From NCBI GenBank assembly GCA_041662225.1, contig JBAZSX010000007.1, positions 30,958 to 94,957 on the forward strand: a DNA stretch of 64,000 nucleotides, given 5' to 3'. The translations under genes were made by a program, and so were the position numbers. Origin of the DNA: Sulfurimonas sp. Lineage in GTDB: Bacteria > Campylobacterota > Campylobacteria > Campylobacterales > Sulfurimonadaceae. Below are positions 2 to 15,125 of the stretch, in pieces; positions within the stretch are counted from its first letter, which is position 1, and each line of letters begins with the position of its first letter. Under the pieces are notes generated by a model, which saw only the letters and a list, made by a program, of their open reading frames with translations, was not told where the DNA came from and did not search any database.

Positions 2-1330
2 ACGAAAGAGTTCAAAGATGTTGTTCTTGGCATGAACAATATGGTTTCAAAAGTAAAAGCTATGTTTGACAAAGGAAATGAGGAGCTAAAACGACAAAAA
101 GAGTTGGAGTACATAGACCCGACAACAAAACTTAGAAATCGTAAATACCTCATTGATAAACTGCCTGAGTATCTTAAAATTGATGCAAGCTCCAAGGGTG
201 GTATCAATATGATGATAGCTTTTAGCGGAGTAATCGAAGCAAATGAGAAGATAGGCTTTCGTGATGTCGATAAACTTTTTATTGATATTGCCAATGTATT
301 TAAAAGTTATACAGATAAATATGAACACTCAATAGTCTCAAGAATGAATGGCACGGAGTTTTCTATTTTGCTTCCTGATTGTAATGATGCAGATGGTTTA
401 GTACTTGCTAAGAATATCTATAAATCGGTTAGTAACCTTATTATGTCAAGTGGACTTGACTTGAATGCAACTTATATCTCCCTTGGACTTTATGAGTACA
501 ACTACACGCAAAATATCGGTCAACTCCTCTCTCTCTCGGATAATGCTCTGTCTCAAGCTAAATTTAATGACACGCATATACACCTAGAGAGAGCGGAGAG
601 TGCAATTGAAGTTATGGGTAAAGATGCTTGGAGAGGCATTATAAATGAAGCATTGAATTCAAACAGTTTTAATTTTGTCTCATGGACGGCAGTGGATGCA
701 AAAGCAAAAAAAGTAGCACATCATGCACTGAGTTTGAACCTTAAAGACAAAGATGGCAAAACATACTACTATGGTCAATTTATGGCACCGGCAAATCAGG
801 CAGGTATTAGTTCACAAATCTATAAAAATGTTATAAATATGATGTTTAAAACTCCGGATAGCAATCTAAAAGGTTTAACCTGTTCTTTGAGACTCTCTTT
901 TGAGTATTTGGATATGAAAGAGACCTACCATGAGCTTAGTAACCTCTTTAGAGAATATGCAAAACATCTTCCGTTTAAGCTGATTATGGAGATACCCGAT
1001 AGACTTGTTCGTAAAAATTCTGAGCAGATTAAACAGTATAAAGCTCTTTTTGAGAAATACAATATTGAGATGGGAATTTATGAGTTTATCGGCGAGAGTT
1101 CAGATTATCAATATCTGCAAGATTTAAGACCTGCCTATATCAAAGGCGAAACAAGCTACTTCTTAAGCCAAAGCGAGCAAGCTCTATCTGCTCTTAGACT
1201 AATAACGGACACAATAGGCATCTCACTCATTGCAACAGGAGTAATGGATTTAGAGACACTAGGCAAGCTTGAAGCAAAAGATATATTTGTTATTCAGGGT
1301 CGAGCTACGGAGATGATTGAGTTGAATTAA
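2..1330 (+). CDS. LapD-like degenerate GGDEF + EAL domain protein, 5'-truncated by the window edge
   Basis: Frame is open from base 2. End of a HAMP helix, then D-P-T-T-K-L-R-N-R, degenerate GGDEF (SRMNGTEF) and a degenerate EAL domain (YIK, LIATGV, IQG motifs). Confidence 0.75.
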   Translation, partial: TKEFKDVVLGMNNMVSKVKAMFDKGNEELKRQKELEYIDPTTKLRNRKYLIDKLPEYLKIDASSKGGINMMIAFSGVIEANEKIGFRDVDKLFIDIANVFKSYTDKYEHSIVSRMNGTEFSILLPDCNDADGLVLAKNIYKSVSNLIMSSGLDLNATYISLGLYEYNYTQNIGQLLSLSDNALSQAKFNDTHIHLERAESAIEVMGKDAWRGIINEALNSNSFNFVSWTAVDAKAKKVAHHALSLNLKDKDGKTYYYGQFMAPANQAGISSQIYKNVINMMFKTPDSNLKGLTCSLRLSFEYLDMKETYHELSNLFREYAKHLPFKLIMEIPDRLVRKNSEQIKQYKALFEKYNIEMGIYEFIGESSDYQYLQDLRPAYIKGETSYFLSQSEQALSALRLITDTIGISLIATGVMDLETLGKLEAKDIFVIQGRATEMIELN

Positions 1331-1350
1331 AATATGAACTATGTACTAGG

Positions 1351-1367
1351 CTCCTCTGGAGTTTAGA
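1351..1367. repeat. att core, left copy (integrase-proximal)
   Basis: CTCCTCTGGAGTTTAGA, identical to 5997-6013, 31 bp beyond the integrase stop. Confidence 0.9.
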
Positions 1368-1398
1368 TAAATGGTCGTTAGCGCCGTAAATTAGGGCG

Positions 1399-2499
1399 TT
1401 AGACCCGCTTCATATTTTCCATTGTAACCGTATCGTCACAGTAAAGAGAAAAATTAAGCCCTAAATTTATTTTGTCACCATCAATTACACTTGCATAATA
1501 TTCTAGTGTTGTACTAGCTTTATTATGACCGAGCAAGCCAGCTAATTCATTTATACTCACTATCTTACCTTGAAGCATTAAAGTTGCAAAAGTATGACGG
1601 GTTGAATACATTCTGTATCTTGGCACACCACTATCTTTTACAACATTATTCCATTTTCGTTTTAGCTTGTCAGCATCGTCAATATCTCCAAAAATAAAGA
1701 TATTATTTGTCTGTATCTTTTTTACTTCATCTAAAATCAATTTAGAGTAAGGAACTTTTCTAACTGCATTAACTGTTTTTCCGTTTCCTATAATGCCTTT
1801 ACTTCTAGTTCTTTTAATATGAATATACCCATCATCTTTAAAATCACCGATTTGAAGTCCTAAAATTTCACCGACTCTCATTCCCGTATTGAATGCAATC
1901 TCTAAATATGCTTTCATAATACCAGAGGCTACACCTAAAAGCTTTCTTACCTCTTCTTTGGTGTAATATTCAATTTCCTCTTTAGCTTCTTTTTTGAGCT
2001 TTATATTGAGTGCTGGATTGAAATCTATTACTGCATCGTCAACTGCCAATTCAAAAATCTCATTGACACAACTTTTATAAACTTTTAGTGATGATGCTTT
2101 CATATCTAACGAAATCAAATATCTCTTAATGTCTAGTCTGGTTATTGCGTCAATATTACGACCGTTAAAAAACTGAATGACTCGTAAAAAATATTCTTTC
2201 TTTACTAAGTAACTCCGATTTTTATCTTTTTGTTCTAAAAATATACCACCGTAATACTCGAAAGTTTTAGGTTTTTTCTTGTATATTTCACCTGTTGCAA
2301 TTTTCATATCAAGAGCTGGTATAATCTTGTCTTTCACTATTTTTATGTTTTGAGGTGTGTCTTTTAACTTAGTGGACTTTTGTTTTCTCACACCATCAAC
2401 ATAATAATTAAGCCATATTACAGAGCCTCTTAAAAAATATGTTGTCATTCCTTTGTTACCTTTTTTAGTGGTAACAGCCTTACTATGAAACAAAATCAT
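1399..2499 (-). CDS. Tyrosine recombinase / phage-type integrase (likely start 2448, MTTYFL)
   Basis: Catalytic motifs NTGMRxGE, YSTRHTFAT, LLGH and TTLEYY; N-terminal arm-binding-like domain; AAAGGA RBS before 2448. Confidence 0.92.
   Translation of the reverse strand: MILFHSKAVTTKKGNKGMTTYFLRGSVIWLNYYVDGVRKQKSTKLKDTPQNIKIVKDKIIPALDMKIATGEIYKKKPKTFEYYGGIFLEQKDKNRSYLVKKEYFLRVIQFFNGRNIDAITRLDIKRYLISLDMKASSLKVYKSCVNEIFELAVDDAVIDFNPALNIKLKKEAKEEIEYYTKEEVRKLLGVASGIMKAYLEIAFNTGMRVGEILGLQIGDFKDDGYIHIKRTRSKGIIGNGKTVNAVRKVPYSKLILDEVKKIQTNNIFIFGDIDDADKLKRKWNNVVKDSGVPRYRMYSTRHTFATLMLQGKIVSINELAGLLGHNKASTTLEYYASVIDGDKINLGLNFSLYCDDTVTMENMKRV
1423..1445. repeat. Putative integrase arm-type site, left
   Basis: TGTAACCGTATCGTCACAGTAAA matches 5906-5928 at 20/23 positions. 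Confidence 0.6.
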
Positions 2500-2505
2500 A
2501 CCTTT

Positions 2506-2715
2506 TTATATTAAAAATTTATCTAAGTCGATTTCGTCAGAAATTGAATTGATAGGCTTAATGCTATTATTGAACTCTTCTACATCAATATAAATTCTTT
2601 TATATCCATTTATTTTATGAGCTGTAAGGTCTTTGTTTCTTATCATACCTCTGATGTATGAAATATCAATACCCATATCTTCGGCGACTTTTTGAATAGT
2701 TTGAAATTTATTCAT
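2506..2715 (-). CDS. Excisionase-like winged-HTH protein
   Basis: TIQKVAEDMGID..YIRGMIRNKDL resembles Xis/MerR-type HTH; lies immediately upstream of the integrase. Confidence 0.7.
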   Translation of the reverse strand: MNKFQTIQKVAEDMGIDISYIRGMIRNKDLTAHKINGYKRIYIDVEEFNNSIKPINSISDEIDLDKFLI

Positions 2716-2716
2716 T

Positions 2717-4117
2717 TTAAAATACCTCGCATGCTTCGTTAATATCTGTAAGTTTCAACCGCTCACCCACAATCAAACCTCTGTCAATCATTTCATTCGT
2801 AGCGATTACATAGTGAGCAGGGTTCACAATTGCTATATCTATACTTTCAAAATAGCTGTTAAGCTGATAGTTTTTCATCTGATAGGGTTGTGTAGTGACT
2901 TTTTGCAGTATGTCTTGAAACGGAACAGCCTCTTTGCCTTGTTCTAAGAGCTTTTGATTTTCATAGTTGTGTTTTTTTATAGAAAAATTATAAGTGATGA
3001 ACTCTTCACCGTCAATTTCGACATTGATATAGTGCGGGGTTTCATCTTTATAGATAGACTCAAATCCGCTATCTAACTGCACTTTGCCATCTTCCCCGAC
3101 TCTGTCAGCTTCATCTAGTTTTTGCGACCAATTCACGGGTTTAGGTATGTAAATAGTGCCGTATTCATTTTCTATCATAGCTATTTTTTTAGTATCGGAA
3201 TAAACATATACGCATACTTCATTCAAATCATATTTTTCAGTCAGTTTTTGGAGCGTGTACATACCATTTAATCGTCTATACACTTCAAGAGCTACAAAAG
3301 TGCGTGAAGTATAAAACCTTGAAATGCCGTGATACAGATACCATAGAGTAAGATTTGATATATCGCTATTTTCGTCTCTTAAATCGTCTAAAGTTTTTAA
3401 TACATATTTCATCAAATAAGCTACGGGGCTATCTATATCCGTTTCAATTTTACTTTGCGGAGCAGGGAACAATCTATTAAGAGCTGCAACAATTTTATCT
3501 TTCATATCAGATGGGATAAATAAACTCATGTGGATATGAGGTGTACCGTCTTGATGTGGTTCAGTAACTCGAAAATAACATCTATCATCCTTATTGATGT
3601 TTTTGTAAGCCCTATCATCGAAAAACTTTTTTAATAGCTTAGAAAGCTCTATAGAAGCATTGTGCGGAGTGTATTTGTCTATTGTTTCACTAAAATCTAG
3701 TACAGCTTCAAAATCAAGTCCGTTAAACTTTTGCGTTACATGACAATTAAAAAATTTGTATTTCTTTTTATCAATAGGACTTTTTAAAGTAGTGATATAT
3801 GTACGACCAGAAAACTTTTTATTGTTAATGAGTTTATCTTTAAAAGACTTCTTTTTATGCCAATGAGAGGGAAGCGTCAGAGTGAGAAACACATTAGATA
3901 AGTCTTTTGACTTCGCATAATTGTAAACACTCCAAGCACGGTGCTGTAACTCTGCTATATATCTATCACTGTTCATATAGCTGTTTTGAACGAAATCAGC
4001 GAAAGGCACTATTTTGTTATCAACTTGCACACCGTTGGAGTTCATGAACTGTCTATTAAATTTTAATTTGTCATGAGCTTTTTTAATTTGATACTTTGTT
4101 AAACCGTATGTTTTCAT
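2717..4117 (-). CDS. HUH rolling-circle replication endonuclease, P2 gpA-like
   Basis: FLTLTLPSHWH, RVTEPHQDGTPHIH (HUH motif) and AYLMKYVLK (YxxxY), as in the P2 gene A family. Confidence 0.85.
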   Translation of the reverse strand: MKTYGLTKYQIKKAHDKLKFNRQFMNSNGVQVDNKIVPFADFVQNSYMNSDRYIAELQHRAWSVYNYAKSKDLSNVFLTLTLPSHWHKKKSFKDKLINNKKFSGRTYITTLKSPIDKKKYKFFNCHVTQKFNGLDFEAVLDFSETIDKYTPHNASIELSKLLKKFFDDRAYKNINKDDRCYFRVTEPHQDGTPHIHMSLFIPSDMKDKIVAALNRLFPAPQSKIETDIDSPVAYLMKYVLKTLDDLRDENSDISNLTLWYLYHGISRFYTSRTFVALEVYRRLNGMYTLQKLTEKYDLNEVCVYVYSDTKKIAMIENEYGTIYIPKPVNWSQKLDEADRVGEDGKVQLDSGFESIYKDETPHYINVEIDGEEFITYNFSIKKHNYENQKLLEQGKEAVPFQDILQKVTTQPYQMKNYQLNSYFESIDIAIVNPAHYVIATNEMIDRGLIVGERLKLTDINEACEVF

Positions 4118-4305
4118 TTTGTGACCTTTTCATCCATAAAAACAGATTTTAAAGATTCAATAATCAAAGAATTTACAGATAAATTATTTTTTTCTGCAAT
4201 ATCATAAACTACTTCTTTCAATTCCATAGGAATTCTTAAACTAATTCCATAAAGTTTTTCATTTCTTTTATTTGCTCTAAATATACTTAATTCTAATTTT
4301 GTCAT
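4114..4305 (-). CDS. Ribbon-helix-helix (Arc/CopG-like) DNA-binding protein
   Basis: GISLRIPMELKEVVYDIAEKNNLSVNSLII pattern; ATGA overlap with rep. Confidence 0.7.
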   Translation of the reverse strand: MTKLELSIFRANKRNEKLYGISLRIPMELKEVVYDIAEKNNLSVNSLIIESLKSVFMDEKVTK

Positions 4306-4434
4306 TTTGCTACTTCCTTTTTAATTTTTCTAATCGTGTCCGATAACTTTTTATAGATAGCCAAGAGGCTATCGCCTCATACTGTTTTTGTTCGGCGGAG
4401 CCTCACAAAAAAACAGTCTTCGCCTATAGCCTTA

Positions 4435-4626
4435 CTATTCATTATCATCAATTGGAGTGTAATTAAAGGAGCCTTTCAGACAATCAAGAATTAAATTGTA
4501 GTCTGTAAGATGTAAAGAGCCAAACGCATTTAAACCTAAGAGTAATCTATGAAATTCATCTAGTTTTCTATGCACAGTAGAGCAGTCAATTTCTGTTTTT
4601 TTAATATTTTTTTGTGTATTATTCAT
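4435..4626 (-). CDS. Small hypothetical element protein
   Basis: AAGGAAAG RBS upstream; co-oriented with the element genes; no motif recognised. Confidence 0.5.
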   Translation of the reverse strand: MNNTQKNIKKTEIDCSTVHRKLDEFHRLLLGLNAFGSLHLTDYNLILDCLKGSFNYTPIDDNE

Positions 4627-4836
4627 TGTTTCTTTCCTTATCGGCTTGAAACAGCATAGGGAGTTTTTATCTTGGCGGATGGACTCTCTATGTGTTCTTA
4701 TTGTTTAAGACTTCAAATAAAACTACTATTAATGCAAATAGTATGTGTTCATACTCTATCATCTAACTTTTTTTAAGACACGTAAAAACTTATGGGTGAT
4801 TTAGAAATGACATTAATTTACCTTTAACTGAGATTT

Positions 4837-5184
4837 TCATATAAATCTCCTTACTTGGTGAAATAAATTCATATATAAATCATAAGTGGCTTTCATTTTT
4901 TCTAATCTTTTATCATCGCCCTCATCAATTAATTCAAAATTGCTTATTTTATGACTAAGTTGACCTATTTCTTGCACAAGTAAATTATCTATTTGCTTTA
5001 ATAAATTACCGCAACTATCGTCCAACATTAATTCTATACACGAAGTAATCAATGCATTCATAGAAACATCTTCCTGCTCAGAAAATAATTGAAGCCTATC
5101 TTTTAAATTTTTAGGAATTTTTAAACTAATTCCAACTTTTTCCTCGTCTTGACCTTTTGCTAATTCAACAGCTTTTTTTCTCAT
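4837..5184 (-). CDS. Ribbon-helix-helix protein with C-terminal extension
   Basis: GISLKIPKNLKDRLQLFSEQEDVSMNALI; AAGGA RBS; similar to 4114-4305. Confidence 0.7.
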   Translation of the reverse strand: MRKKAVELAKGQDEEKVGISLKIPKNLKDRLQLFSEQEDVSMNALITSCIELMLDDSCGNLLKQIDNLLVQEIGQLSHKISNFELIDEGDDKRLEKMKATYDLYMNLFHQVRRFI

Positions 5185-5409
5185 TTTTTAATCCTTTTAT
5201 TCGGGATGTTAAAATGATAGCTTATAATAATATCATTGTCAACTACTATTATAAAAGATGTAGAGTTAGTATGTATTTTGAAGACTAACGCCTCGATGTA
5301 TTGTGTTCTGAAAACAACTGATAAGCTCGTTGTTATCCCTATCGTTCGTTCCTCTCTATGACGGGAGTTTATTTTTATAAATTGTGTATAATAGTTAGAA
5401 AGGAGCACT

Positions 5410-5883
5410 ATGAATTTATCAACCATCCCATCGGATAACTTATATAAGTTTATGTCTATTTTTGGTTTAGTTTTGATTGTGTCGTGTATGACTGCTTATA
5501 TGTTAGTGCATGATTCGTGGACTGAACAAACATATAAACTAGAACTAAAAATAAAAGAAATGGATGTAAAAACGAAGCACCAGAGTGATAGTATTGAATT
5601 ATTTGATATTGACTCGTGCAAAGCTAATCCTAAAGATTGTCATGACAATTTTGAAAAAATAGAAAAAACTCAAAGAGAACAGGAGATTGATAATAGTCAA
5701 CTTATTGTTCTAAATAAATATCTTAATGAAAGATTAAAAGAAATCACCAGTTATTCTTATGCTCTCTTTTTTTTAACTTTGTTTGGATTTTTGATATCTA
5801 CAGTAGGATTCATTCTATGGTATTATAAATTGCAAATCTATCAAGATGCACTGATTATTAAAGAATATAAGAAACAAACATAA
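5410..5883 (+). CDS. Two-TM membrane cargo protein of unknown function
   Basis: AAGGAG RBS; hydrophobic segments near both termini around a charged helical loop containing CKANPKDC. Confidence 0.75.
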   Translation: MNLSTIPSDNLYKFMSIFGLVLIVSCMTAYMLVHDSWTEQTYKLELKIKEMDVKTKHQSDSIELFDIDSCKANPKDCHDNFEKIEKTQREQEIDNSQLIVLNKYLNERLKEITSYSYALFFLTLFGFLISTVGFILWYYKLQIYQDALIIKEYKKQT

Positions 5884-5905
5884 CATAATTAGATGTAGAT
5901 AAAAA

Positions 5906-5928
5906 TGTAACCGTAGTGTCACCGTAAA
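5906..5928. repeat. Putative integrase arm-type site, right
   Basis: TGTAACCGTAG-TGTCACCGTAA tandem 11-bp units; matches 1423-1445. Confidence 0.6.
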
Positions 5929-5991
5929 ACAGCTATATTCATAGTAAAACTGTTACATTATACCCCTAAAAGCCCTTGTTTGTGGGGTTTT

Positions 5992-6408
5992 TCAAACTCC
6001 TCTGGAGTTTAGACCTTTTATCAGAGCTCCTTCAATTTCAGTTGTATAGTCAGGATTTAACTTTCTTAGCTCTTTTTCAAAATTTATAATTAAATCTTTG
6101 TTTGTGTTTGGATGAAGACAGATACTAAAAATTATTTCCAAGTAAGTGTCAAAATTATGATAAGTTTTAACTTCTCCCTTCCCATCAATTGCTCCGTAAT
6201 GCTGTATGACTAAATCAAGAGCCTCTTTGAGTCCTTTAGAGGTTGTATTTTCATCTTTTATAATTGCTTTTAAAGATTGTAAATCCGCTTTTGGTTCTTC
6301 CTTATTAATCTGCACATTCTTACTTCTAATAGACACAAGCCAAAAAATCAATAAACCCAAAACAACTGTTAGACCAAAACCTACCTCAAGAAGAAAGACA
6401 ATATCCAT
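5992..6408 (-). CDS. Small single-TM hypothetical protein; integration target
   Basis: N-terminal TM helix followed by a helical domain; its last codons carry the att core. Confidence 0.8.
   Translation of the reverse strand: MDIVFLLEVGFGLTVVLGLLIFWLVSIRSKNVQINKEEPKADLQSLKAIIKDENTTSKGLKEALDLVIQHYGAIDGKGEVKTYHNFDTYLEIIFSICLHPNTNKDLIINFEKELRKLNPDYTTEIEGALIKGLNSRGV
5997..6013. repeat. att core, right copy (inside the 3' end of the host gene)
   Basis: Identical to 1351-1367; encodes LNSRG of ORF 5992-6408. Confidence 0.9.
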
Positions 6409-6416
6409 AATTTTTC

Positions 6417-8066
6417 CTATACATTAAATCTATCAATTTTTTCACTCAATATTTGGGCATCCTGACTAAGAGAATTTGCTAAATCCATCAATTCATCAAT
6501 AGTTTTTGAACTTCCCTCAACCACACACTGAACATCAGAAGTGCTTTCATTAATATCTTCTATATCCAAACATATTTTAGAATTTTTTTCTAATAATATA
6601 TTTGTGTACTCTTTCGTTGTCTGCAGTTTTTTAGCAGCCTCAGTAATGAGTGATTTCACTTCATCGCTATGCTCATTTAATTCATTTAGAGAGTTAGATT
6701 GCTCTTTAATACTGTCAACTGCCTCAACCGCGGTTTGTGAGAGCACCCTAAATGTTGCATCGCTCTCTGTCAGAGACTTCTGAGTTTTCTCGGCTAGTTT
6801 TCTTACCTCGTCGGCGACGACTGCAAATCCTCTCCCATGCTCACCGGCACGGGCGGCTTCAATAGCCGCGTTCAATGCCAAAAGATTTGTCTGCTGAGCA
6901 ATGTCAGATATGATTGTCAAAATATGCTGAACATCCCCGATGGTTTGATTAAGATGACCAATACGCTCTACAGTTTCTTCTCCTCTTTCAACATTCTTCT
7001 TAATCTCTGAAATCATACCTTCAATCTTATCTTGCGCATTACTCAGCGAACTATCGGCTTCATTGATCCTATCTACAGATTCATTGTTGATTTGGTTAGA
7101 CTCTTTCATAATATTTTCTATTTTTGCAGAATTGTTCATCATGTCACGCAGAAGGTTACACCCCTTAGATATCTCATTTTTTTGTGAAACAGTCATTTTG
7201 TTTATGCGAAGTGCTACATCTTTATTGGTCGCTACGGCATGTTTTGTATCGCGAATAAAACTTGCGGAGTCTTCTATAAACTCATTTATGTATTTTGCGA
7301 TAAGACCAATCTCATCGTTATATTTGATTGTAAGTCTCTTCGAAAAATCCCCTTTCATTAAAGAGAGCTCATTCACAATCCTCTCTACCTGAGAGCCGAC
7401 GAGTACCTTCATGCCAAAATATACGGCAAGCTGGATAACCAGCTGAAGAGTAACCACTCCAATCCACATAAACAGTGTTTGGCTCTTAATTTTTTCTATC
7501 TCCGGGAGTATGTCAATGTAAACCGTAGCACCGCCAAGAACCGTTCCCTCCGGAACATTATGACATGTGAGACAATTGGTTCCCTTGTAATTTGAACTCG
7601 CAATAAACGGCATGGTAACTCTTAGAGTTTTATTATTACTTTCATCAAAATCTGTAACTATTGTTTTCGTTTCTATGCTCTTTTTGTCAAGCGCATCTCT
7701 TGATTGCTCAATCTCTAAACCTTCTCCATAGTCTGGGGTTAAATTGCTTGTTCTAAAAGCATAAAAACCTTTTACCTCATCTGTTAAAGCGGTTTTTTCA
7801 TAAAAAAGCTTTCTGTTTTCTGCATCCGATATTGCACCGGTAAGCATCATCATGTTGAGTCCATTGATGGTACTTTGAGCTATTGCAACTCCTTTTCCCT
7901 CAATAAGCTCTATTAAGTTGTCACGATTTTTATCTTGAAGCCAAAAGATAACACTGCTAAGCATAACAGATAAGATAACAAAGATTGCAATTTGCAGTTT
8001 TGTACTTATACTAAGATTTTGAAAATATTTTGGCATCGCTACTTCCGTAATATCGTTTTTTTGCAA
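6417..8066 (-). CDS. Methyl-accepting chemotaxis protein with periplasmic CxxCH heme-c motif (likely start 8036)
   Basis: Two TMs, HAMP, MCP hairpin [34 protein letters not shown]; NCLTCH between the TMs. Confidence 0.92.
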
Positions 8067-8311
8067 ATAAGTATTGATTATACACTAAAATGTAAAAAGT
8101 ATGCATTGAACAATTGTATATATTATAACAACTGTCACAAAATTGTGTTGCTTAAGAGAGTTTAATTAAAGTTCTATTTATTGCTTTTATCCTGAATATC
8201 ATAAAACTAGTTCAGTAGTGTATGCATGTAGATATAAAGATTAGAAAAAATCATCACACAACTAGCAAAATTTTTTAATGTTATTACAATTATAATAAAT
8301 GTAGAATGCAT

Positions 8312-8395
8312 CTTGTTAAAATGTGCCAAACTTGTTGTGAAGCAAGGACGGAAAGCTATGGGTCTTTGATAAGAGATCGCCAGGTTGCAATATTC
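8312..8395 (+). ncRNA. c-di-GMP-I (GEMM) riboswitch
   Basis: GCCAAAC-TTGTT-GTGA-AGCAA-GGACGGAAAGC...GGGTCT...GATCGCCAGGTTGC fits the GEMM-I consensus with a GNRA loop, G20, A47, C92 and a covarying C21-G46 pair. Confidence 0.85.
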
Positions 8396-8458
8396 TTCTA
8401 ATTTGCCTTCCTAGACTCTTTATCTACAATACAACTCATTAAATTTAAAGGATTTATT

Positions 8459-9766
8459 ATGAAAAAACAAAAGTTTATCTATTCGTTGTCGGTAATTGCC
8501 GCACTATCGTTTTATGGTTGCGGTTCTAGCACGAGTACAAACACTAGTGCAATAGCTGATGCTTCTGCTTCCGTAGAAGCTGCAATTTCTGCAGTTTCAG
8601 GATACAGTGTAGTTGTTGAAAGAGGTGCTGTTTATGATTCTAATGTTACAGATGCTAATGGGAGTGTTGCAGTACAGGTAAGCGATACAAACAATACATA
8701 TGTATTTGCGAATGAGCCTGTTTTCCCTGTTACGGCTGTAGGTGGATGGATTGATGTTGACGGTGATGGAAATTTAACGGCTGCGGATGTTGCCCTTGAT
8801 ATTAATCTTACATCTTACAGCAATGTAATTACTCCTACTACTACATATATCGCTGATGAAAATGAAACAGTTCGTGAGCAGAAATTATTTGCGCTGGCAC
8901 AGGAAACAAATACAACAATTGAAGAGTTGCTAAAAGTCCCGTCTGAGGCAACCAAGAAGTCCATTATTGTCCTTAACGCTGTTTATGAGAAATTGATTGA
9001 AAGAGACAATGAACACTCGCATGCACCTATTGCAATCGAGGCGATTTTAAAAAGATTTACAGAAATTGAGAATAACAGCAATTTGGATGAGAATGCTACA
9101 TCTTTAGAGATGGCGCTTGCCGTTGAAGAGCAAACAATGTTTAGTCTTGAAGCACAAGGTTTAATACAGACACTAAACCTTGATGAAATAGAAGAAATTA
9201 AAGCTAAAAAACCTTCAAAACAGAATAGAGGTGATGAAAACTCCGCTCCTGAGAAAGCCGAGGATGTAACTATCAAAATTTCTGCTCCCGAGAAAGCCGA
9301 GGATGTAACTTTCAAAATCTCTGCTCCCGAGAAAGCCGAGGATGTAACTTTCAAAATCTCTGCTCCTGAGAAAGCCGAGGATGTAACTATCAAAATTTCT
9401 GCTCCCGAGAAAGCCGAGGATGTAACTTTCAAAATCTCTGCTCCAGAAAAAGCCGAGGATGTAACTTTCAAAATCTCTGCTCCAGAAAAAGCCGAGGATG
9501 TAACTTCCGATTCAGAAACAACGGATGCAGTGACTTCCGACTCAGAAACAACTGACGGTACAGCTTCTAATCCAGTAACAACCGAAAGTAACACTCCAGA
9601 TTCAGCAGCAATTGATGTTGTAGCTTCTACTTCAGGAACAACTGATAGTAATTCGGGTTCAGCGACAACTGATGCTATAGCCTCAGAATCAGCAACAACC
9701 GATACTGTAACTTCCGACTCGGAAACAACCGATAGTGAAGTTTCCAACCCACTACCTATAGTATAA
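8459..9766 (+). CDS. Lipoprotein with 13-aa tandem repeats and an acidic Ser/Thr-rich tail
   Basis: AAAGGA RBS; lipobox FYG-C; SAPEKAEDVT[IF]KI repeats. Confidence 0.85.
   Translation: MKKQKFIYSLSVIAALSFYGCGSSTSTNTSAIADASASVEAAISAVSGYSVVVERGAVYDSNVTDANGSVAVQVSDTNNTYVFANEPVFPVTAVGGWIDVDGDGNLTAADVALDINLTSYSNVITPTTTYIADENETVREQKLFALAQETNTTIEELLKVPSEATKKSIIVLNAVYEKLIERDNEHSHAPIAIEAILKRFTEIENNSNLDENATSLEMALAVEEQTMFSLEAQGLIQTLNLDEIEEIKAKKPSKQNRGDENSAPEKAEDVTIKISAPEKAEDVTFKISAPEKAEDVTFKISAPEKAEDVTIKISAPEKAEDVTFKISAPEKAEDVTFKISAPEKAEDVTSDSETTDAVTSDSETTDGTASNPVTTESNTPDSAAIDVVASTSGTTDSNSGSATTDAIASESATTDTVTSDSETTDSEVSNPLPIV
9241..9505 (+). repeat. 39-bp coding tandem repeat, 6 full units plus 1 partial
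   Basis: Repeats of TCTGCTCC[CTA]GA[GA]AAAGCCGAGGATGTAACT[TA]TCAAAAT[CT]. Confidence 0.9.
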
Positions 9767-10010
9767 GATAATAATAGATTATAAGGAGCTTGCCAAACAG
9801 TTATATTTGGTAGGCTCATCAAACTTCCACCACGCAGACCGCACATGCTAGAAAATTTTCCAGAGTATCTTTTAAAATTCTCATCCCAATCTCATTTTTA
9901 ACAATTACAATTATAGAATACATACTAAAATAAAAGAACCTATTATGATAGATAAAATCTAAAGGTGCTTATATCTTAATCTTTTGGATACTAAAAATTG
10001 AGGATGAATT

Positions 10011-10205
10011 ATGTTAAATGTAATAGAAATGAAAAAAGAGATAGAAGAGAATTTTCCATTGCTAGAGCAAGCAAGAAAGTTATTAGATGAGGTAATAAGA
10101 AGTGAACAGCCGCGAATCTCATATAGTGAAGAGCAACTAGCACTCTTGGAATCGTGGGATATACTTTGTAAAAGGCAGATGGAGTTAATGATGCGGGCTC
10201 GATAA
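10011..10205 (+). CDS. Small hypothetical protein, probably part of a decayed element
   Basis: GAGGA RBS; 64 aa; no motif recognised. Confidence 0.5.
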   Translation: MLNVIEMKKEIEENFPLLEQARKLLDEVIRSEQPRISYSEEQLALLESWDILCKRQMELMMRAR

Positions 10206-10458
10206 GTAGTTGAATGTACCTTCTCTGTTTACATGTTTCTTGAACTTTATAAATTTTTAAAGGTGCATAATTTTTGTTAGAAGTGTCATACAGTTGATTT
10301 TTTATATGTTTTGTGCCTGTGAAAGCCCATGTTTTAGGGTGTTTGAAGTGAATTTTTTTCTTCTGGTGGAAGTGAGGGGTTTACGATATACCTATTATAG
10401 GGCTTTATAGGCATAACTTTAAAAATATACCCCTAAAAATTAATGTGTACTTTTATAT

Positions 10459-10740
10459 TTATAAATCATCTTGGCATTTTTTAATGCCTATGATTGTAAT
10501 AATTTCTTTTATAGTATCAACTCTATAAACAATTGTATAACCTTTAAAAATTAAATCTCTTATGCTCTCATCTTGAAAATAGATTGATTGTCGAAACTTA
10601 AAAGGCATGTTTACTAAATTATTCATTTTATGTATCAATTCATTTTTAAAATTTTTAGCGTTGCGTTTATTGTCAAGTGCTATAAAATATAAAACTTCTT
10701 TAAATTGATTATGAAATTTTATGCTTTTTATAATCTGCAT
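10459..10740 (-). CDS. RelE/ParE-family toxin
   Basis: Basic 93-aa protein with FIALDN..AKNF..EL, P...R and RDLIFKGYTIVYRV motifs. Confidence 0.85.
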   Translation of the reverse strand: MQIIKSIKFHNQFKEVLYFIALDNKRNAKNFKNELIHKMNNLVNMPFKFRQSIYFQDESIRDLIFKGYTIVYRVDTIKEIITIIGIKKCQDDL

Positions 10741-11001
10741 TTATTTAACATTATCAATAAAAGCATCTAACTCATCAAATCCATCATCAAAAGGAACTAA
10801 TCTAACTTTTCCACTTTCAATTTCTTCAAGTGCGTTTTGAAAATATGCTTTGTCATCTTGGAAGTTTTGAGAACTCAAATAGCTCTCTTTGTTATACAAG
10901 ATTTTATTAAATGCAAGTTTTAATTCATCTTGAATATTGATACCTTTTTTTATCATCTCATCGTATAAATTATCTTCAACTTGAAAATGTATAGTTTGCA
11001 T
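10741..11001 (-). CDS. Cognate antitoxin
   Basis: Acidic 86-aa ORF abutting the toxin start; C-terminal ALEEIESGK. Confidence 0.75.
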   Translation of the reverse strand: MQTIHFQVEDNLYDEMIKKGINIQDELKLAFNKILYNKESYLSSQNFQDDKAYFQNALEEIESGKVRLVPFDDGFDELDAFIDNVK

Positions 11002-11225
11002 TAAAAAATCCTTGAATATAAACTTTGTAAAATTATAGCAATGTTAGTTCAATATCATCTAAATGAATATTTATAATTAATCCGATAAAGAGATTTTTTA
11101 AATATACCCCTAAAAACTTTGGATAACTATAACATACATAAGATTAACTTAGACTAATGAAGAGGCTTAAAGTTCGTTGGCTAGGGGGCTTTGTGGGTTT
11201 CTTTGGATTGGTTTAGATTGTGTGG

Positions 11226-11313
11226 TGGTGGACAGTGAGGGGTTCGAACCCTCGGTAGGTTACCCTACGCTACCTTTCCAAGGTAGTAGATTCAACCGCT
11301 CTCCCAACTGTCC
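11226..11313 (-). tRNA. tRNA-Ser(GGA), CCA encoded
   Basis: Cloverleaf: acceptor GGACAGT/ACTGTCC, anticodon arm CTACC-TTGGAAA-GGTAG, long variable arm GTAGG-GTAA-CCTAC, T arm GAGGG-TTCGAAC-CCCTC. Confidence 0.95.
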
Positions 11314-11371
11314 ATTAATGAGAAGTTGAATTTTACCGACTTCGTTCTTAATTTTTAGTAATATTACCCAT

Positions 11372-11941
11372 TTATAAATTTTTTGCTTCGCTGAAACTTT
11401 CATTTTGGCTATCGTAAGTTATATATGAAGCATAGGGAAGAGATATGTTAAAAGCTTCTTCAAGGCTAAGATTTAATACTAAGCACATAAAAACTCTTAT
11501 AACTCCTGCATGTGTAACTACTAAAATACTTTCTTTTTTTAATGATGGTAAATACTCTAAAAAAAACTCTTTTACTCTATTTAAATAGCTCTCATAATCT
11601 TCACCGTCAAGGGCATTGATCCACTGCAAAAAATCTTTATAAACTATGCCGTCTCGCGCAACTATCTCATCAAAACTTAAGCCTTCATGTCGTCCCCATG
11701 ATTTTTCTCTTAGCTTATTTGTGCAGATAGCATTCTTAGCCTGTGAAAAGTTTTTAATACTCTCTTTTACACGAATAAGATCTGAACAAAAAACTTTGTC
11801 AAACTTTAAATCGTAAAAATGTTCGGCTAATTTTTTAGCTTGTTCGTAGCCTGCTTTAGAGAGTCCAATATCCAGATGTCCATTATATCTCTTATGATAT
11901 GCCTCATCAACCTCTGCATGACGAATGAGAGTGATTTTCAT
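11372..11941 (-). CDS. cobC: Histidine phosphatase, CobC-like alpha-ribazole phosphatase
   Basis: LIRHAE, SDLIR, LREK..G and VVTHAGVIR motifs; adjacent to cobS. Confidence 0.75.
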   Translation of the reverse strand: MKITLIRHAEVDEAYHKRYNGHLDIGLSKAGYEQAKKLAEHFYDLKFDKVFCSDLIRVKESIKNFSQAKNAICTNKLREKSWGRHEGLSFDEIVARDGIVYKDFLQWINALDGEDYESYLNRVKEFFLEYLPSLKKESILVVTHAGVIRVFMCLVLNLSLEEAFNISLPYASYITYDSQNESFSEAKNL

Positions 11942-12675
11942 GAAATGCCAATAATCAGTATGCTGTTTAACAAAATTAACTCTGTTACTTCAATACAGAA
12001 CCCGTAAATATCCCCGGTAAAGCCGCCATATCTTTTGAGAAAGTAGAGTTTTATAACAAACAAAATTAACAGACTCACAAATATCAGAACAAGATTCAAT
12101 AAACCGAACATCAAAGCGCCAATGGTAATGACATAGATTGTAGCTGCAAGAACTTGAAAATTTTTCAACTCCTCTTTTGCAAAACTGCTCATGCCATTGG
12201 GGCTGACATAGGGATAAAAGTAGATTGCCAAAACAGCGTTGAAGCGGGAGAGCATTAAAACCAGTGGAAGCAGATAAAAGGCATCAAACACCGCCAAGGT
12301 AGAAGCTTTTAATATTAAAAAAGCAGCTGTGAATATCATTCCCATTGCGCCGACATGCGGCTCTTTCATAACCTCTAGTGCTCTCTCTCTTGGAGTGTAA
12401 ATACCATCAATAGTATCACTCAAACCATCAAGATGCAGTGCACCCGTGAGAAATATCCACATGCCAAAGATGATAATGCCTAGGTGAGTATGAGGAATAT
12501 AGGGGTTTAAGAGTTCATGCATGCCCCACAATATTGCACCAAGAATAAATCCAACCAAAGGGTAGGACATGACTGCATAGCCGTTTATTCCTTTGCTGAA
12601 ATCATGCACTCTAAAAAAAGGAAGCGTCGTGAGCATGGAGACGGCAAGGGCAAAACCTTTGAAAATATCTCTCAT
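11938..12675 (-). CDS. cobS: Adenosylcobinamide-GDP ribazoletransferase
   Basis: LTGALHLDGLSDT, MKEPHVGAMG and GGFTGDIYG motifs. Confidence 0.92.
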   Translation of the reverse strand: MRDIFKGFALAVSMLTTLPFFRVHDFSKGINGYAVMSYPLVGFILGAILWGMHELLNPYIPHTHLGIIIFGMWIFLTGALHLDGLSDTIDGIYTPRERALEVMKEPHVGAMGMIFTAAFLILKASTLAVFDAFYLLPLVLMLSRFNAVLAIYFYPYVSPNGMSSFAKEELKNFQVLAATIYVITIGALMFGLLNLVLIFVSLLILFVIKLYFLKRYGGFTGDIYGFCIEVTELILLNSILIIGIS

Positions 12676-13202
12676 TTTATCCTTGTTGCTATGCCGGCAA
12701 CCGTATGATAAACTTCATCGCAGTGCGACGCAATCAGTTGTGACAGTTTTCCGCTGATATCAATAAACACTCTTGCTAGTTTATTTTCAGGAATAACTCC
12801 GCAGCCAACATCATTCATAACAAACACAATGTTTTGTTTGAGTTTTAGGATATTTGTTAGTTCTTCCTTCATATCAGAAAAATCAAATCCATGATAAAGC
12901 ATATTATTAATCCACATGCTAAGGCACTCAACCAAAAAGCTATCCTGACGCTCCAAGAGTATTTCTTTGCTATCTCTCACAGCACATGCAGAAATTTTTT
13001 CGTAAAGTTTTAACGGCTCTTCTATAGTTATAAAATTATCTTTTCGCTGTTCTTTATGCGCATGAATTCTTATTTGCATCTCATCATCAATAAACTCTGT
13101 TGTAGCCAAATAGTAGGGTTTTGTTGATGAATTTTTAAGTATGAAATTTTCTGCATTCAAAGATTTACCGCTTTTTATACCGCCGATAAAAAGTGCTTTC
13201 AT
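12672..13202 (-). CDS. cobU: Bifunctional cobinamide kinase / guanylyltransferase
   Basis: GGIKSGKS P-loop, RIHAHKEQR, EEP, ECLSMW and V.AGI motifs. Confidence 0.9.
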   Translation of the reverse strand: MKALFIGGIKSGKSLNAENFILKNSSTKPYYLATTEFIDDEMQIRIHAHKEQRKDNFITIEEPLKLYEKISACAVRDSKEILLERQDSFLVECLSMWINNMLYHGFDFSDMKEELTNILKLKQNIVFVMNDVGCGVIPENKLARVFIDISGKLSQLIASHCDEVYHTVAGIATRIK

Positions 13203-13847
13203 CTACCGTACTATATCGCTGTAGTCATATTTACTCAAATCAATATACATTTTTTTGCCAACAGTAACAACTCTCTTTTCATCTTTTATTTTTTTAAATC
13301 TCTTTTTTATTTTTTCTTGCATCTGTTCTGGAAAACCGCTGTTTTTGAGATATTTTTTTATAGAGATGCGCTGGCTTTCTTTTTTGGGTGCATCTTCAAT
13401 ATCTTCTATATCTGCTTCTACATGCGGCTCTTTTATGCTCTCTTGCATCGGAGTGTTGAGCATGAATTGTGAAGAGATAGTGTTGAGGATATTTTTTAAC
13501 TGTTCATCTTTATCCCTATAAATCTGTTCTATTTTTATTCGCTCTTCTATGAGCATCTGCTCTTTTTGGTCTCGGAGCGTTCTTGTTTCACCTTCAAGTT
13601 TTTCAACTTTTTCCTGAAGTTTTACATTTTGCTCTTCTAAAAATTTATAGTATTTATCATCGTTATTTTTGTCACTTTTTTTTGTTTGTGTTTTGTTAGT
13701 TGCTTGTGAAACAGCTCCATCTATTTCAACAAGCTTCACACCACTTTCTACAACGCTTTGCAATGAGCCTCTTCTGATTCTGTTATGGATAGCCTCTTTA
13801 GAAACCCCAAAATGGGTAGCTGCATCTTCAATGCTCATCTTCGACAT
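13203..13847 (-). CDS. HTH plus coiled-coil DNA-binding protein
   Basis: MSIEDAATHFGVSKEAIHNRIRRG HTH; central coiled coil. Confidence 0.7.
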   Translation of the reverse strand: MSKMSIEDAATHFGVSKEAIHNRIRRGSLQSVVESGVKLVEIDGAVSQATNKTQTKKSDKNNDDKYYKFLEEQNVKLQEKVEKLEGETRTLRDQKEQMLIEERIKIEQIYRDKDEQLKNILNTISSQFMLNTPMQESIKEPHVEADIEDIEDAPKKESQRISIKKYLKNSGFPEQMQEKIKKRFKKIKDEKRVVTVGKKMYIDLSKYDYSDIVR

Positions 13848-13852
13848 ATGAA

Positions 13853-14356: not shown

Positions 14357-14420
14357 ATCCTTTATTTCTATAATTGAAAATTATTATAACACATTTCAAT
14401 TGTTAGTTCTGTTAGTTGTT

Positions 14421-15122: not shown

Positions 15123-15125
15123 ATA

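Follow-up and report, generated by a model that had tools for sequence, protein, structure and literature searches.

What is a 4,646-bp insertion that carries a tyrosine integrase and a rolling-circle replication initiator, and no virion or transfer genes? Such an element occupies the last codons of a gene for a 138-aa protein in the genome of a groundwater Sulfurimonas, within a 64,000-nucleotide stretch of DNA analysed here (the window; Table 1). The original prediction was of a minimal integrative replicon, either a phage satellite or an integrative plasmid, unable to package or conjugate itself and not recognised as a named Campylobacterota family. Here we describe the element as intact and non-autonomous, and suggest that it is most likely a satellite of filamentous phages; to this account as a whole we give a probability slightly better than even.

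Table 1 Features of the element and its flanks, in window coordinates
Feature	Position	Strand	Evidence
Host GGDEF-EAL gene, left flank, outside the element	32..1330	+	PF00990, PF00563
attL core: first copy of CTCCTCTGGAGTTTAGA, a 17-bp perfect direct repeat	1351..1367		Repeat search
Tyrosine integrase, 366 aa, arm-binding N terminus	1399..2499	-	PF00589 E 2.4e-14, PF12167, phrog_1 E 5.8e-54
Arm-type repeat TGTAACCGTATCGTCACAGTAAA, putative Int arm site	1423..1445		Repeat search; partner 5906-5928, 87%
Xis-like HTH protein, 69 aa	2506..2715	-	HTH_17 E 0.0047, excisionase PHROG E 0.01
HUH rolling-circle Rep, inovirus type, 466 aa	2717..4117	-	PF05840, PF23343
RHH protein (Arc/CopG-like), 63 aa (rhh63)	4114..4305	-	Arc PF03869 E 5e-6
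Invariant 25-nt motif CTTGGCTATCTATAAAAAGTTATCG (coding strand), overlapping the operon promoter	4341..4365	-	Conservation across long-Rep loci
Imperfect hairpin, 24-bp arms, immediately 5′ of the motif	4366..4432	-	Inverted-repeat search
orf63, small-element hallmark protein, 63 aa, helical hairpin	4435..4626	-	Family conservation
RHH-type regulator, 115 aa, probable repressor (rhh115)	4837..5184	-	PHROG Arc-like repressor E 2.1e-5
Sigma-70-like promoter of rhh115	5242-5214	-	11/12 positions match
Moron-type control region: terminator-like hairpin (5352-5367), extended -10 TGTGTATAAT, cargo RBS	5352..5409	+	
Cargo, 157-aa TM/coiled-coil/TM membrane protein	5410..5883	+	94% identical in G163 element
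Right arm of attP, includes TGTAACCGTAGTGTCACCGTAAA	5901..5975		86-96% conserved: L005, L006, L010, L011, L069, other genomes
attR core, second CTCCTCTGGAGTTTAGA copy	5997..6013		Repeat search
Host 138-aa target gene	5992..6408	-	Empty-site homologues; last codon and stop (..LNSRG-V-stop) element-supplied

Site-specific recombination at a core of 17 bp produced the insertion in the 3′ end of the host gene. A repeat search confirmed the predicted terminal repeats: the two copies of CTCCTCTGGAGTTTAGA are 100% identical and lie 4,646 bp apart, start to start. By chance, about 1e-3 such perfect 17-mer pairs would be expected in 5.5 kb of sequence, and 16 of the 17 bp also flank a related element (L069) at the homologous gene of another genome. 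The displaced original end of the host gene (..LNSRG-A-stop) runs through attL on the minus strand. Contiguous empty sites are found in four related genomes (G023, G009, G008 and G005), in which the GGDEF-EAL gene directly adjoins the 138-aa gene, and in the source metagenome, where a contig of a co-occurring strain (depth 63) joins position 1332 to 5994. Both junctions are covered by mismatch-free source-metagenome contigs at flank depth, and the element is therefore not an assembly artefact; its GC content is 31.1%, compared with 36% in the flanks. Its own depth equals that of the flanks (40x), that is, one copy per chromosome in situ. Thus the anticipated empty attB exists, whereas the anticipated excised circle was not seen, no circle junction being present in the contig-level data of the source metagenome.

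The integrase carries the catalytic-type motifs RVGE, RHTFA, LLGH and EYY and is 95% identical to that of an element at the same att in another genome, G163 (dN/dS 0.13). The right-hand copy of its arm repeat sits in a 75-nt block that is kept by all elements with this integrase type. Profile matches of the Xis-like protein are weak alone, yet its position between rep and int is always kept, and it is 90–100% identical among relatives (dN/dS 0.05–0.09); int, xis, rep and orf63 are all under purifying selection (dN/dS 0.04–0.19). Profiles and coordinates bore out the predicted inventory of int, Xis-like HTH, 466-aa HUH Rep with YLMKY, two RHH proteins and an oppositely oriented cargo gene, which had overlooked one conserved ORF, orf63. 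As had been claimed, Pfam and PHROGs searches of all ORFs detected no Zot/pI, secretin, coat or transfer genes; no small hydrophobic ORF occurs in any intergenic space of the element, and tRNA and Rfam searches gave no matches. The element can probably excise and replicate by rolling circle, but cannot by itself build a particle or conjugate. The minimal-replicon reading accordingly stands, given the att repeats, the empty sites, the intact int, xis and Rep, and the missing morphogenesis and transfer genes.

The Rep links the element to filamentous phages. With HIH at residues 194–196 and YLMKY at 234–238, it scores 46.3 bits against PF05840 (cut-off 31.4) and 40.7 bits against PF23343, and its assignment as P2 gpA-type holds at the superfamily level. 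The gene A proteins of P2 and phiX174 share PF05840, the HUH motif and the two-tyrosine YxxKY, and the element may also have a CTTG-type nick sequence, as these initiators do; however, identity to the Reps of P2-like phages is only about 24%, and the element does not lie in a tailed-phage or microvirus genome. Its nearest Reps are instead those of Sulfurimonas filamentous phages, at 91–93% identity to two full-length, Zot-bearing integrative inoviruses, L007 and L008. In the tree, the element's Rep groups with L005 and L006 and the Zot-linked L007 and L008 (100/100 support), nested in an otherwise Zot-linked clade (dN/dS 0.04–0.09). Zot or a secretin accompanies the long Rep at nineteen loci, the sole exception with adequate context being the lineage of this element, and metagenomic long-Rep contigs are Zot- or secretin-linked without exception; in the inovirus L009 the order is p614-p71-Zot-secretin-Rep-xis-int.

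The sequences upstream of rep follow the same pattern. The stop of the 63-aa RHH gene overlaps the rep start, placing it at the head of an rhh-rep-xis-int operon, and the protein shares 73% identity with its counterpart ahead of Rep in L007. In each of the 20+ long-Rep loci the motif CTTGGCTATCTATAAAAAGTTATCG recurs, identical or with 1–3 changes, at a distance of 35–45 nt upstream of rep or of the rhh-rep pair, even where the Reps are only 54% identical, and was not found in short-Rep elements or in the C21 prophage described below. Folded as single-stranded DNA, the adjacent hairpin has an energy of −18.8 kcal/mol (z −4.05); its apical loop is common to L009, and a GC-rich hairpin of differing sequence lies at the same place in every relative. 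From this conservation, motif and hairpin probably constitute the double-strand origin or a Rep operator.

This Rep bears directly on whether the element might be an integrative mobilizable element, in which the HUH Rep doubles as a relaxase and the type IV secretion system of a conjugative element moves the circle. HUH Rep-related relaxases are known in such elements of Firmicutes, and the element lacks transfer machinery of its own. We nevertheless consider this very unlikely: relaxase, coupling-protein and oriT-like features were not detected, Reps of the GPA/G2P type are not known to serve as relaxases, and the close relatives of the Rep are all in filamentous phages.

The rest of the element has a different affiliation. 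Its backbone (int, xis, orf63, cargo and att) matches Zot-less elements of 3.7–7 kb that carry a different, shorter Rep. Searches for conserved gene order, as originally proposed, revealed this family in about 9% of Sulfurimonadaceae genomes; no published name for it was found in the literature, and it is apparently undescribed. Eighteen short-Rep elements (3.66–7.07 kb, bounded by direct repeats) have the order rhh-orf63-Rep-(xis)-int and lie at tRNA-Asn, tRNA-Leu, tRNA-Arg or gene ends; Zot is near none of the 18, and in three carrier genomes it is missing altogether. The hallmark orf63 matches 14 unnamed clusters, and homologues 42–97% identical to it lie just upstream of Rep in Zot-less elements. 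It gave no family match in Pfam, PHROGs or PADLOC, and its AF2 model (pLDDT 83) has no PDB match; its dN/dS is 0.08–0.19. Homologues of the 115-aa RHH protein, which has no Pfam match, occur in 27 of 353 Sulfurimonadaceae genomes, always heading small elements. Beyond it lies a cargo slot whose control region is 86–95% conserved in other elements irrespective of cargo; other copies hold a RES-domain protein, an M48 peptidase or membrane proteins in this slot. The cargo protein here is modelled as all-helical and has no significant Pfam, PHROGs or PADLOC match.

Comparison with the G163 element delimits what was exchanged. At the DNA level the two are 93% identical over int and xis, 84% over orf63 and 93% over cargo, arm and att, whereas the Reps are only 31% identical at the protein level, and the 63-aa RHH belongs to the swapped block. 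The small-element backbone, joined to an inovirus-type Rep, small RHH and origin motif, marks the element as a chimera; from these comparisons we are highly confident of its anatomy and that a small-element backbone captured an inovirus Rep–origin cassette. Decay of a full-length integrative inovirus by deletion of its structural module might likewise leave an inovirus-derived Rep, rhh63 and origin motif, and defective prophages have been reported among Sulfurimonas inoviruses (PMC11531552), but such an origin is highly improbable: the affinity of int, xis, orf63, rhh115, cargo and att is with the Zot-less short-Rep family rather than inoviruses, purifying selection acts on the genes, all of them intact, neither att core has a mismatch, and elements of this architecture are found in four genomes and at two att sites, with different cargo. 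That the element is a piece of some larger, known prophage was rejected on similar grounds, since it is bounded and recurrent at two att sites, with backbone genes that are not inoviral.

On dependence upon inoviruses the evidence points both ways. In favour of a satellite, a mini-element and a full inovirus that share Rep and motif occur together in one MAG (G362/CANMJR). Zot prophages occur in 8 of 31 carrier genomes and in 34 of 322 others (odds ratio 2.9, p 0.02, in a test that ignores phylogeny and MAG incompleteness). This enrichment, together with the capture of a complete inovirus Rep–origin cassette, suggests a functional tie to inoviruses. The co-occurrence is modest, with 23 of the 31 carrier genomes lacking a Zot prophage; the only one in the element's own genome (C21) has an unrelated Rep and a Zot with a +1 frameshift at codon 10. 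Activity left no direct sign either, given the flank-level depth, the lack of a circle junction and of circular forms among 15 small metagenomic contigs, and IMG/VR searches with Rep and orf63 patterns that found nothing. The many carriers without Zot prophages favour a phage-independent integrative plasmid that leaves the chromosome, replicates as a circle in the manner of a plasmid and inserts again, spreading by vertical descent and through natural transformation or vesicles, its Rep cassettes having been swapped with inoviruses only because both share hosts. The CopG-like RHH overlapping rep is a classic layout of rolling-circle plasmids, and no packaging signal, as sequence or hairpin, was found to be common to the mini-elements and the full-length phages. 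Past attR, G000 and G163 agree at 93% over about 100 nt of the host gene, whereas the whole genes are 38% identical, which fits transfer by recombination with flanking DNA. Against this, PLSDB contains no free plasmid relatives (nothing there matches the long Rep, and for the short Rep the only matches are Reps of P2-like prophages, at <=32%), none of the 15 small metagenomic contigs is circular, the element has a single copy per chromosome, and the apparent tie to inoviruses would be left aside. We regard the plasmid as possible but distinctly the weaker account.

The element might also primarily benefit its host as an island interfering with inoviruses, a role compatible with that of a satellite. 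It could act by Rep titration at a decoy origin, RHH-mediated immunity or a membrane exclusion protein, and would fit an origin motif and RHH shared with co-circulating inoviruses, a variable cargo slot with its own promoter, and a cargo gene differing from its G163 homologue by nonsynonymous changes only. PADLOC was negative for every cargo and backbone protein, and we think this role improbable.

The satellite reading finds its closest parallels in pDolos, RS1 and TLCphi. In Vibrio cholerae, the filamentous satellite phages RS1 and TLCphi are integrated elements of 2.7–4.7 kb that keep a filamentous-phage replication and regulation module without coat or assembly genes, and integrate at dif through host XerCD. 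RS1 has the Rep and origin type of its helper CTXphi, just as the element shares these with L007/L008-type inoviruses; unlike both satellites, the element has its own tyrosine integrase, Xis, private att and promoter-equipped cargo slot, in a different host phylum and with no sequence relationship. PICMI, P4 and PICI are also small, helper-dependent integrated islands with an integrase, excision regulator, replication initiator and variable cargo, but they parasitize tailed dsDNA phages through primase-helicase-type replication and dsDNA packaging, and none is known to use an HUH Rep. pDolos, a 2.9-kb rolling-circle plasmid satellite, was shown to be packaged and spread by the Shewanella inovirus Dolos, and its authors predict such systems to be common (bioRxiv 10.1101/2023.11.28.569023). 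It too is small, with its own rolling-circle Rep (359 aa), a small repressor, tiny ORFs and no structural genes; it is an autonomous plasmid, however, never integrated and without int or xis, whereas packaging of our element is putative, and the Rep of phage Dolos matches the element's only over 87 aa (34%). The integrative Sulfurimonas inoviruses proposed as 'Amplinoviridae' were found through their pI marker, in a study that does not mention satellites (Commun Biol 2024, PMC11531552). They share the element's hosts, its Rep (91–93% identical in two members), an identical origin motif, a homologous RHH upstream of rep and tyrosine int and Xis downstream; they differ in having 13–18 genes, with pI/Zot, usually secretin, a large pIII-like gene and small coat-like genes that the element lacks, and in lacking orf63 and rhh115.

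In the life cycle that we propose, relief of the RHH repressors would allow expression of the rhh63-rep-xis-int operon, Int and Xis would excise the circle, and Rep would nick it within the conserved motif. Rolling-circle replication would then produce circular single strands corresponding to the coding strand (minus in the window), which would most likely be extruded in the filaments of a helper inovirus, in the manner of a natural integrating phagemid. This packaging by a helper, which would make the element a satellite, is the more tentative step, to which we give slightly less than an even chance. The helper-type Rep–origin cassette would also allow replication by the Rep of the helper, and the CTTG/G of the motif resembles CTTG/ATA, at which phiX174 and pC194 are nicked. 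With its replication gene and origin borrowed from filamentous phages, the element is well suited as a candidate for a satellite of such phages that integrates by its own means.

The element in G000, a Sulfurimonas-genus genome of 2.74 Mb in 25 contigs from which the window covers C7:30958-94957, is bounded by exact 17-bp direct repeats of CTCCTCTGGAGTTTAGA spaced 4,646 bp apart, as originally predicted, and has a GC content of 31% compared with 36% in its flanks. The predicted gene list (int, an Xis-like HTH gene, a 466-aa Rep, two RHH genes and a cargo gene) stands, with the addition of a 63-aa ORF, orf63, that it left out. The proposed HUH plus YxxxY initiator class also holds: Rep passes the curated PF05840 cut-off of 31.4 bits and carries HUH and YxxKY motifs, placing it in the superfamily of the P2 gpA and phiX174 A initiators. 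PF23343, PF05840 and a tree position in a Zot-linked clade identify it as a HUH rolling-circle Rep of the G2P/GPA type. The element belongs both to the PF05840 Rep superfamily and to the integrative elements with tyrosine integrases. Successive genes from rhh63 through rep and xis to int are separated by −4, 1 and 6 nt.

Features of the 4,646-bp element (window coordinates)
Feature	Coordinates	Strand	Evidence and remarks
Left repeat, 17 bp	1351-1367		
int, tyrosine integrase	1399-2499	-	PF00589; phrog_1, E 5.8e-54
xis-like HTH gene, 69 aa	2506-2715	-	Weak matches to HTH_17 and excisionases
rep, 466 aa	2717-4117	-	PF05840, 46.3 bits; PF23343; HIH at 194-196, YLMKY at 234-238
rhh63, Arc/CopG-type RHH gene, 63 aa	4114-4305	-	Stop overlaps the rep start
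Origin-like motif CTTGGCTATCTATAAAAAGTTATCG	4341-4365		
Hairpin beside the motif	4366-4432		-18.8 kcal/mol as ssDNA, z -4.05
orf63, 63 aa	4435-4626	-	
rhh115, RHH-like regulator gene, 115 aa	4837-5184	-	
Cargo gene, two-TM protein, 157 aa	5410-5883	+	Sole plus-strand gene of the element
Right repeat, 17 bp	5997-6013		

Pfam and PHROG searches of the element ORFs returned no virion, assembly or transfer domain, including no PF05707 (pI/Zot) match and no relaxase or coupling-protein domain of the kind that would mark an integrative mobilizable element, and the intergenic spaces of the element contain no small hydrophobic ORF as a coat candidate, in agreement with the predicted lack of virion and transfer genes. 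No homologue of the p614, p71 and p120 proteins of relatives lies within the element, nor does any tRNA or Rfam match. To our knowledge, the pI/Zot-like morphogenesis ATPase is the sole universal inovirus marker. Autonomous inoviruses carry this marker and coat genes, whereas the element has neither; because both were searched for and are absent, the element is not itself an inovirus. The orf63 and cargo products are without Pfam, PHROG or PADLOC matches; the former is predicted to fold as a helical hairpin without a PDB match, and the structure model of the latter is of low confidence. Elsewhere in the window, 8459-9766 encodes a 435-aa predicted lipoprotein with six tandem copies of approximately SAPEKAEDVT(I/F)KI and, after them, repeats rich in Thr, Ser and Asp.

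The final codons of a 138-aa host gene overlap with the right repeat, and insertion changes the end of this gene from LNSRG-A-stop to LNSRG-V-stop. Empty attB sites, a proposed check of the original prediction, are present in four related genomes, in which a GGDEF-EAL gene adjoins the 138-aa gene and alignments cross the junction uninterrupted, and in a co-occurring strain (flank 92% identical) in X1, the probable source groundwater metagenome run, as a 352-nt contig of depth 63 joining 1332 to 5994. The integrase catalytic domain, the direct-repeat att sites and the unoccupied attB elsewhere together mark a tyrosine-recombinase element. At the occupied site, both junctions are covered by mismatch-free X1 contigs at a depth of 40, equal to that of the flanks; each chromosome therefore carries a single integrated copy. 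An excised circle would carry the attP junction ...GGGGTTTTTCAAA-CTCCTCTGGAGTTTAGA-TAAATGG..., and this back-joint, the other proposed check, did not appear in the X1 Logan contigs; because such contigs drop rare variants, the negative is a weak one for excision. Contig-level depth in X1 showed no excess element copies, and none of 15 small metagenomic contigs with Rep or orf63 has the terminal overlaps of a circular form. With no PLSDB match to Rep, no circular contigs and chromosome-level depth, we found no free circular replicon of the rolling-circle plasmid kind. Around a related element in genome G163 (L069), approximately 100 nt of the host gene outside attR (6014-6110 versus L069:9454-9552) is 93% identical between G000 and G163, and the target-gene host proteins are merely 38% identical overall, which suggests that flanking host DNA travelled with the element, through recombination or imprecise excision.

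The replication module points to filamentous phages. The 298 relatives of the window Rep are nearly all from Sulfurimonas or other Campylobacterales; this long type of Rep has no plasmid relative in PLSDB, a comparison that the original prediction had proposed, and among phages it is related only to P2-like Reps, at ~24% identity. A Campylobacterales metagenome-assembled genome contains, with a Rep 70% identical to that of the window, a complete filamentous prophage (L009) that encodes in order a 614-aa protein, a 71-aa protein, Zot (PF05707), secretin (PF00263), Rep, HTH, Xis and Int. The same layout occurs in nine more genomes, on metagenomic contigs and in the inovirus loci L007 and L008, the Reps of which are 93% and 91% identical to that of the window. 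Among long-type Reps with sufficient context, 19 are linked to Zot, secretin or a pIII-like protein; the sole unlinked lineage comprises the window element, two mini-elements (L005 and L006) and a truncated copy on G000 contig C8. In the Rep tree, the window and both mini-elements form a clade with the Zot-linked L007 and L008 (support 100/100) that nests among Zot-linked Reps.

Upstream of every long-type rep lies CTTGGCTATCTATAAAAAGTTATCG, at a distance of 35–45 nt from the rep start or from that of the small RHH gene; it is invariant or nearly so even among Reps down to 54% identity, and a GC-rich hairpin, variable in sequence, precedes it in every case. Because non-coding conservation this strong stands beside a hairpin, the pair looks like a candidate rolling-circle double-strand origin or Rep-binding site. 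As a lead, the motif contains CTTG/G, which we take to resemble the phiX174 and pC194 nick site CTTG/ATA. Summed over many sequence variants, X1 contig depth across the rep core (3144-3517) reaches 360–400× compared with 40× for the host chromosome; related elements or phages with such a Rep are numerous in the groundwater community. On an inovirus-type metagenomic contig (L090:973-1959), rep is immediately preceded by a PAPS-reductase gene (PF01507), which may be an auxiliary gene of sulfur metabolism. A complete genome (G219:C1:1,997,000-2,030,000, L052-L053) carries three tandem inovirus-type units at ~13.5-kb spacing, the first with other structural genes and no detected Zot, in an array that recalls the RS1–CTX type.

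The remainder of the element has other relatives. Searching 353 family genomes with orf63 and the 115-aa regulator gave a second set of loci, ordered RHH regulator, orf63, a shorter Rep (annotated at 341–388 aa; PF05840 and PF23343), sometimes Xis, and a tyrosine integrase. These elements span 3.66–7.07 kb between direct repeats of 16–38 bp, target tRNA-Asn, tRNA-Leu, tRNA-Arg or gene ends, and occur in roughly one in eleven Sulfurimonadaceae genomes; the same architecture was found again on metagenomic contigs. No Zot, secretin or coat-like gene lies within reach of any of them. Where a carrier genome does encode Zot, it is on a contig other than that of the element, and three carriers (G022, G192 and G240) have no Zot anywhere. 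The short Reps form a separate tree clade made up wholly of Zot-less elements, and a search for plasmid relatives matched nothing but P2-like prophage Reps, at ≤32%. We found the family described neither in the Sulfurimonas phage survey nor in full-text searches on inovirus satellites; the original prediction likewise recognised no named Campylobacterota family in it.

The short-Rep element L069 (4,351 bp) occupies the homologous gene, keeps 16 of the 17 core bases and matches the window closely in int (95%), xis (90%), orf63 (90%) and the membrane cargo protein (94%), with a Rep that is only 31% identical. At the DNA level, identity is 93% over 1346-2719, 84% over 4337-4808 and 93% over 5276-6110; between 2717 and ~4336, which holds rep and rhh63, no match to L069 is detectable. 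CTTGGCTATCTATAAAAAGTTATCG sits at the upstream edge of this unmatched block, and the block is exactly the part that the window shares with the inoviruses L007 and L008, so a small-element backbone has captured a complete inovirus Rep–origin cassette. The window element is a chimera of the two. L069 itself has an analogous hairpin, then CTCTTGACTAATTATAAAAAAGTTGTGGACA, between orf63 and rep, so both Rep types are found with the order orf63–hairpin–motif–rep, and the motif differs by type. The original prediction had also considered a fragment of a larger known prophage, and both forms of this are rejected: a simple deletion derivative of an inovirus, as the backbone matches the short-Rep family, and a P2-like prophage fragment, given ~24% Rep identity and no tailed-phage genes.

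The element is intact and real, and its low dN/dS values, a second att site and an exchangeable, promoter-equipped cargo slot are unlike a decayed prophage remnant. dN/dS is 0.13 for int, 0.05–0.09 for xis, 0.04–0.09 for rep, 0.08–0.19 for orf63 and, against the C8 copy, 0.125 for rhh115. The second att site, at the 3′ end of rpsR with a core of about CGAAAAYCTTAGATAG, holds L005, L006 and the C8 copy (G000:C8:1-3,960, L011; Rep 95% identical), and the integrases of relatives there are merely 69% identical to that of the window. The int and xis of the C8 copy are nowhere in the G000 assembly; int is missing because the contig breaks off within rep. The cargo slot, flanked by the regulator gene and the right arm, differs from copy to copy: the window copy has a membrane protein, the C8 copy a 299-aa RES-domain protein (PF08808), L006 an M48-type peptidase along with others, and L005 two proteins of no assigned function. 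Upstream of the cargo are a conserved terminator-like hairpin, an extended −10 (TGTGTATAAT) and a ribosome-binding site, and X1 variants joining 5370 or 5377 to 5901 show the slot being exchanged. Between the window cargo gene (5410-5883) and L069:8851-9324 there are ~10 nonsynonymous and 0 synonymous changes (pN 0.029, pS 0), a small sample that hints at diversifying selection on the membrane protein. The 111-nt cargo promoter block occurs a third time (87%), driving an unrelated 134-aa ORF at a contig end beside ordinary host genes (G000:C6:73-613, L064); this may represent a lone moron or the margin of a further element.

We propose that rhh63, rep, xis and int would form a single operon from a promoter overlapping CTTGGCTATCTATAAAAAGTTATCG that the RHH proteins would repress. 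Derepression would allow Int and Xis to excise the 4,646-bp circle, Rep would nick CTTGGCTATCTATAAAAAGTTATCG and, through rolling-circle replication, yield single-stranded circles, and a helper inovirus would package these and move them between cells. The element has a replication module of its own without particle genes, a trait of satellites of the RS1, TLCphi and pDolos kind. This satellite mechanism is plausible but unproven, and helper packaging is the route of cell-to-cell transfer that we favour, because Rep, RHH and origin are common to the element and co-circulating inoviruses of the L007/L008 type, because one metagenome-assembled genome (G362/CANMJR) holds a mini-element and a full inovirus with the same Rep type, because Zot prophages are modestly enriched in carrier genomes (8 of 31 versus 34 of 322 others; odds ratio 2.9, Fisher p 0.02, uncorrected for phylogeny), and because the rolling-circle replicon pDolos is spread by an inovirus. 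pDolos, at 2.9 kb, consists of Rep, a repressor and small unknown ORFs and is packaged and disseminated by that phage (10.1101/2023.11.28.569023). By gene content, G186, G199, G230, G198 and G196 are candidates for genomes with a small element as well as a Zot prophage.

Against helper packaging, most carrier genomes are without a Zot prophage, neither circles nor excess copies were seen in X1 contigs and small metagenomic contigs, and IMG/VR gave nothing in either a Rep scan or an orf63 alignment scan. Comparing the non-coding regions of the element with 13 full-length inoviruses (blastn-short, nhmmer) revealed no shared packaging signal and, apart from the origin motif, returned solely one weak match of 42 nt. 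The resident prophage of G000, on contig C21, also counts against it, with an unrelated Rep, no CTTGGCTATCTATAAAAAGTTATCG and a frameshifted Zot. C21 has the only strong, above-cut-off Zot match in G000 (E 1.8e-22); a marginal one (20.5 bits, E 3.8e-4) falls in an 849-aa frame on C5, outside the element. The structural genes of the C21 prophage (~7,900-16,000, L062) are 57–89% identical to those of L009, with a distant Rep (26%). Near the Zot start (11,590-11,605), an additional A in codon 10, immediately ahead of Walker A, makes its Zot read MITFLLGLP/RLR-stop and resume as GYLGSGKSY in the next frame; either this zot is a pseudogene or the assembly is in error. Among 194 Sulfurimonas-genus genomes, no convincing CRISPR-spacer-like match to the element was found.

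We know of merely a handful of filamentous-phage satellites and of no cultured filamentous phage in the Campylobacterota. The functionally closest known systems are pDolos, RS1 and TLCphi. RS1 and TLCphi of Vibrio rely on the Xer system of the host, and pDolos exists as a free plasmid; unlike all of these, the element encodes a tyrosine integrase and Xis of its own and has private att sites and a self-promoted cargo slot. Inoviruses of Sulfurimonas were described in 2024 by means of the pI marker, with satellites unmentioned (PMC11531552). Our tentative reading, which we rate as possible rather than probable, is that the Sulfurimonadaceae, and possibly many other phyla, harbour undescribed self-integrating inovirus satellites, or natural integrative phagemids. 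Such satellites would retain solely integrase, excisionase, regulators, a cargo slot and Rep together with its origin, would travel in the filaments of helpers as single-stranded DNA, and would keep pace with helpers by swapping in the helper's Rep–origin cassette, as the window element did.

The captured cassette offers a concrete, testable model of satellite–helper coupling, and the invariant 25-nt motif is a ready substrate for biochemical mapping of the inovirus origin. Should the satellite step be wrong, the family would still be among the smallest elements able to integrate and replicate. If it is right, hitchers on filamentous phages would be common in environmental bacteria, as a family overlooked by inovirus finders based on the pI marker, and would pass exchangeable, self-promoted cargo genes, among them those for a RES-domain protein, a peptidase and membrane proteins, from strain to strain while the host survives.
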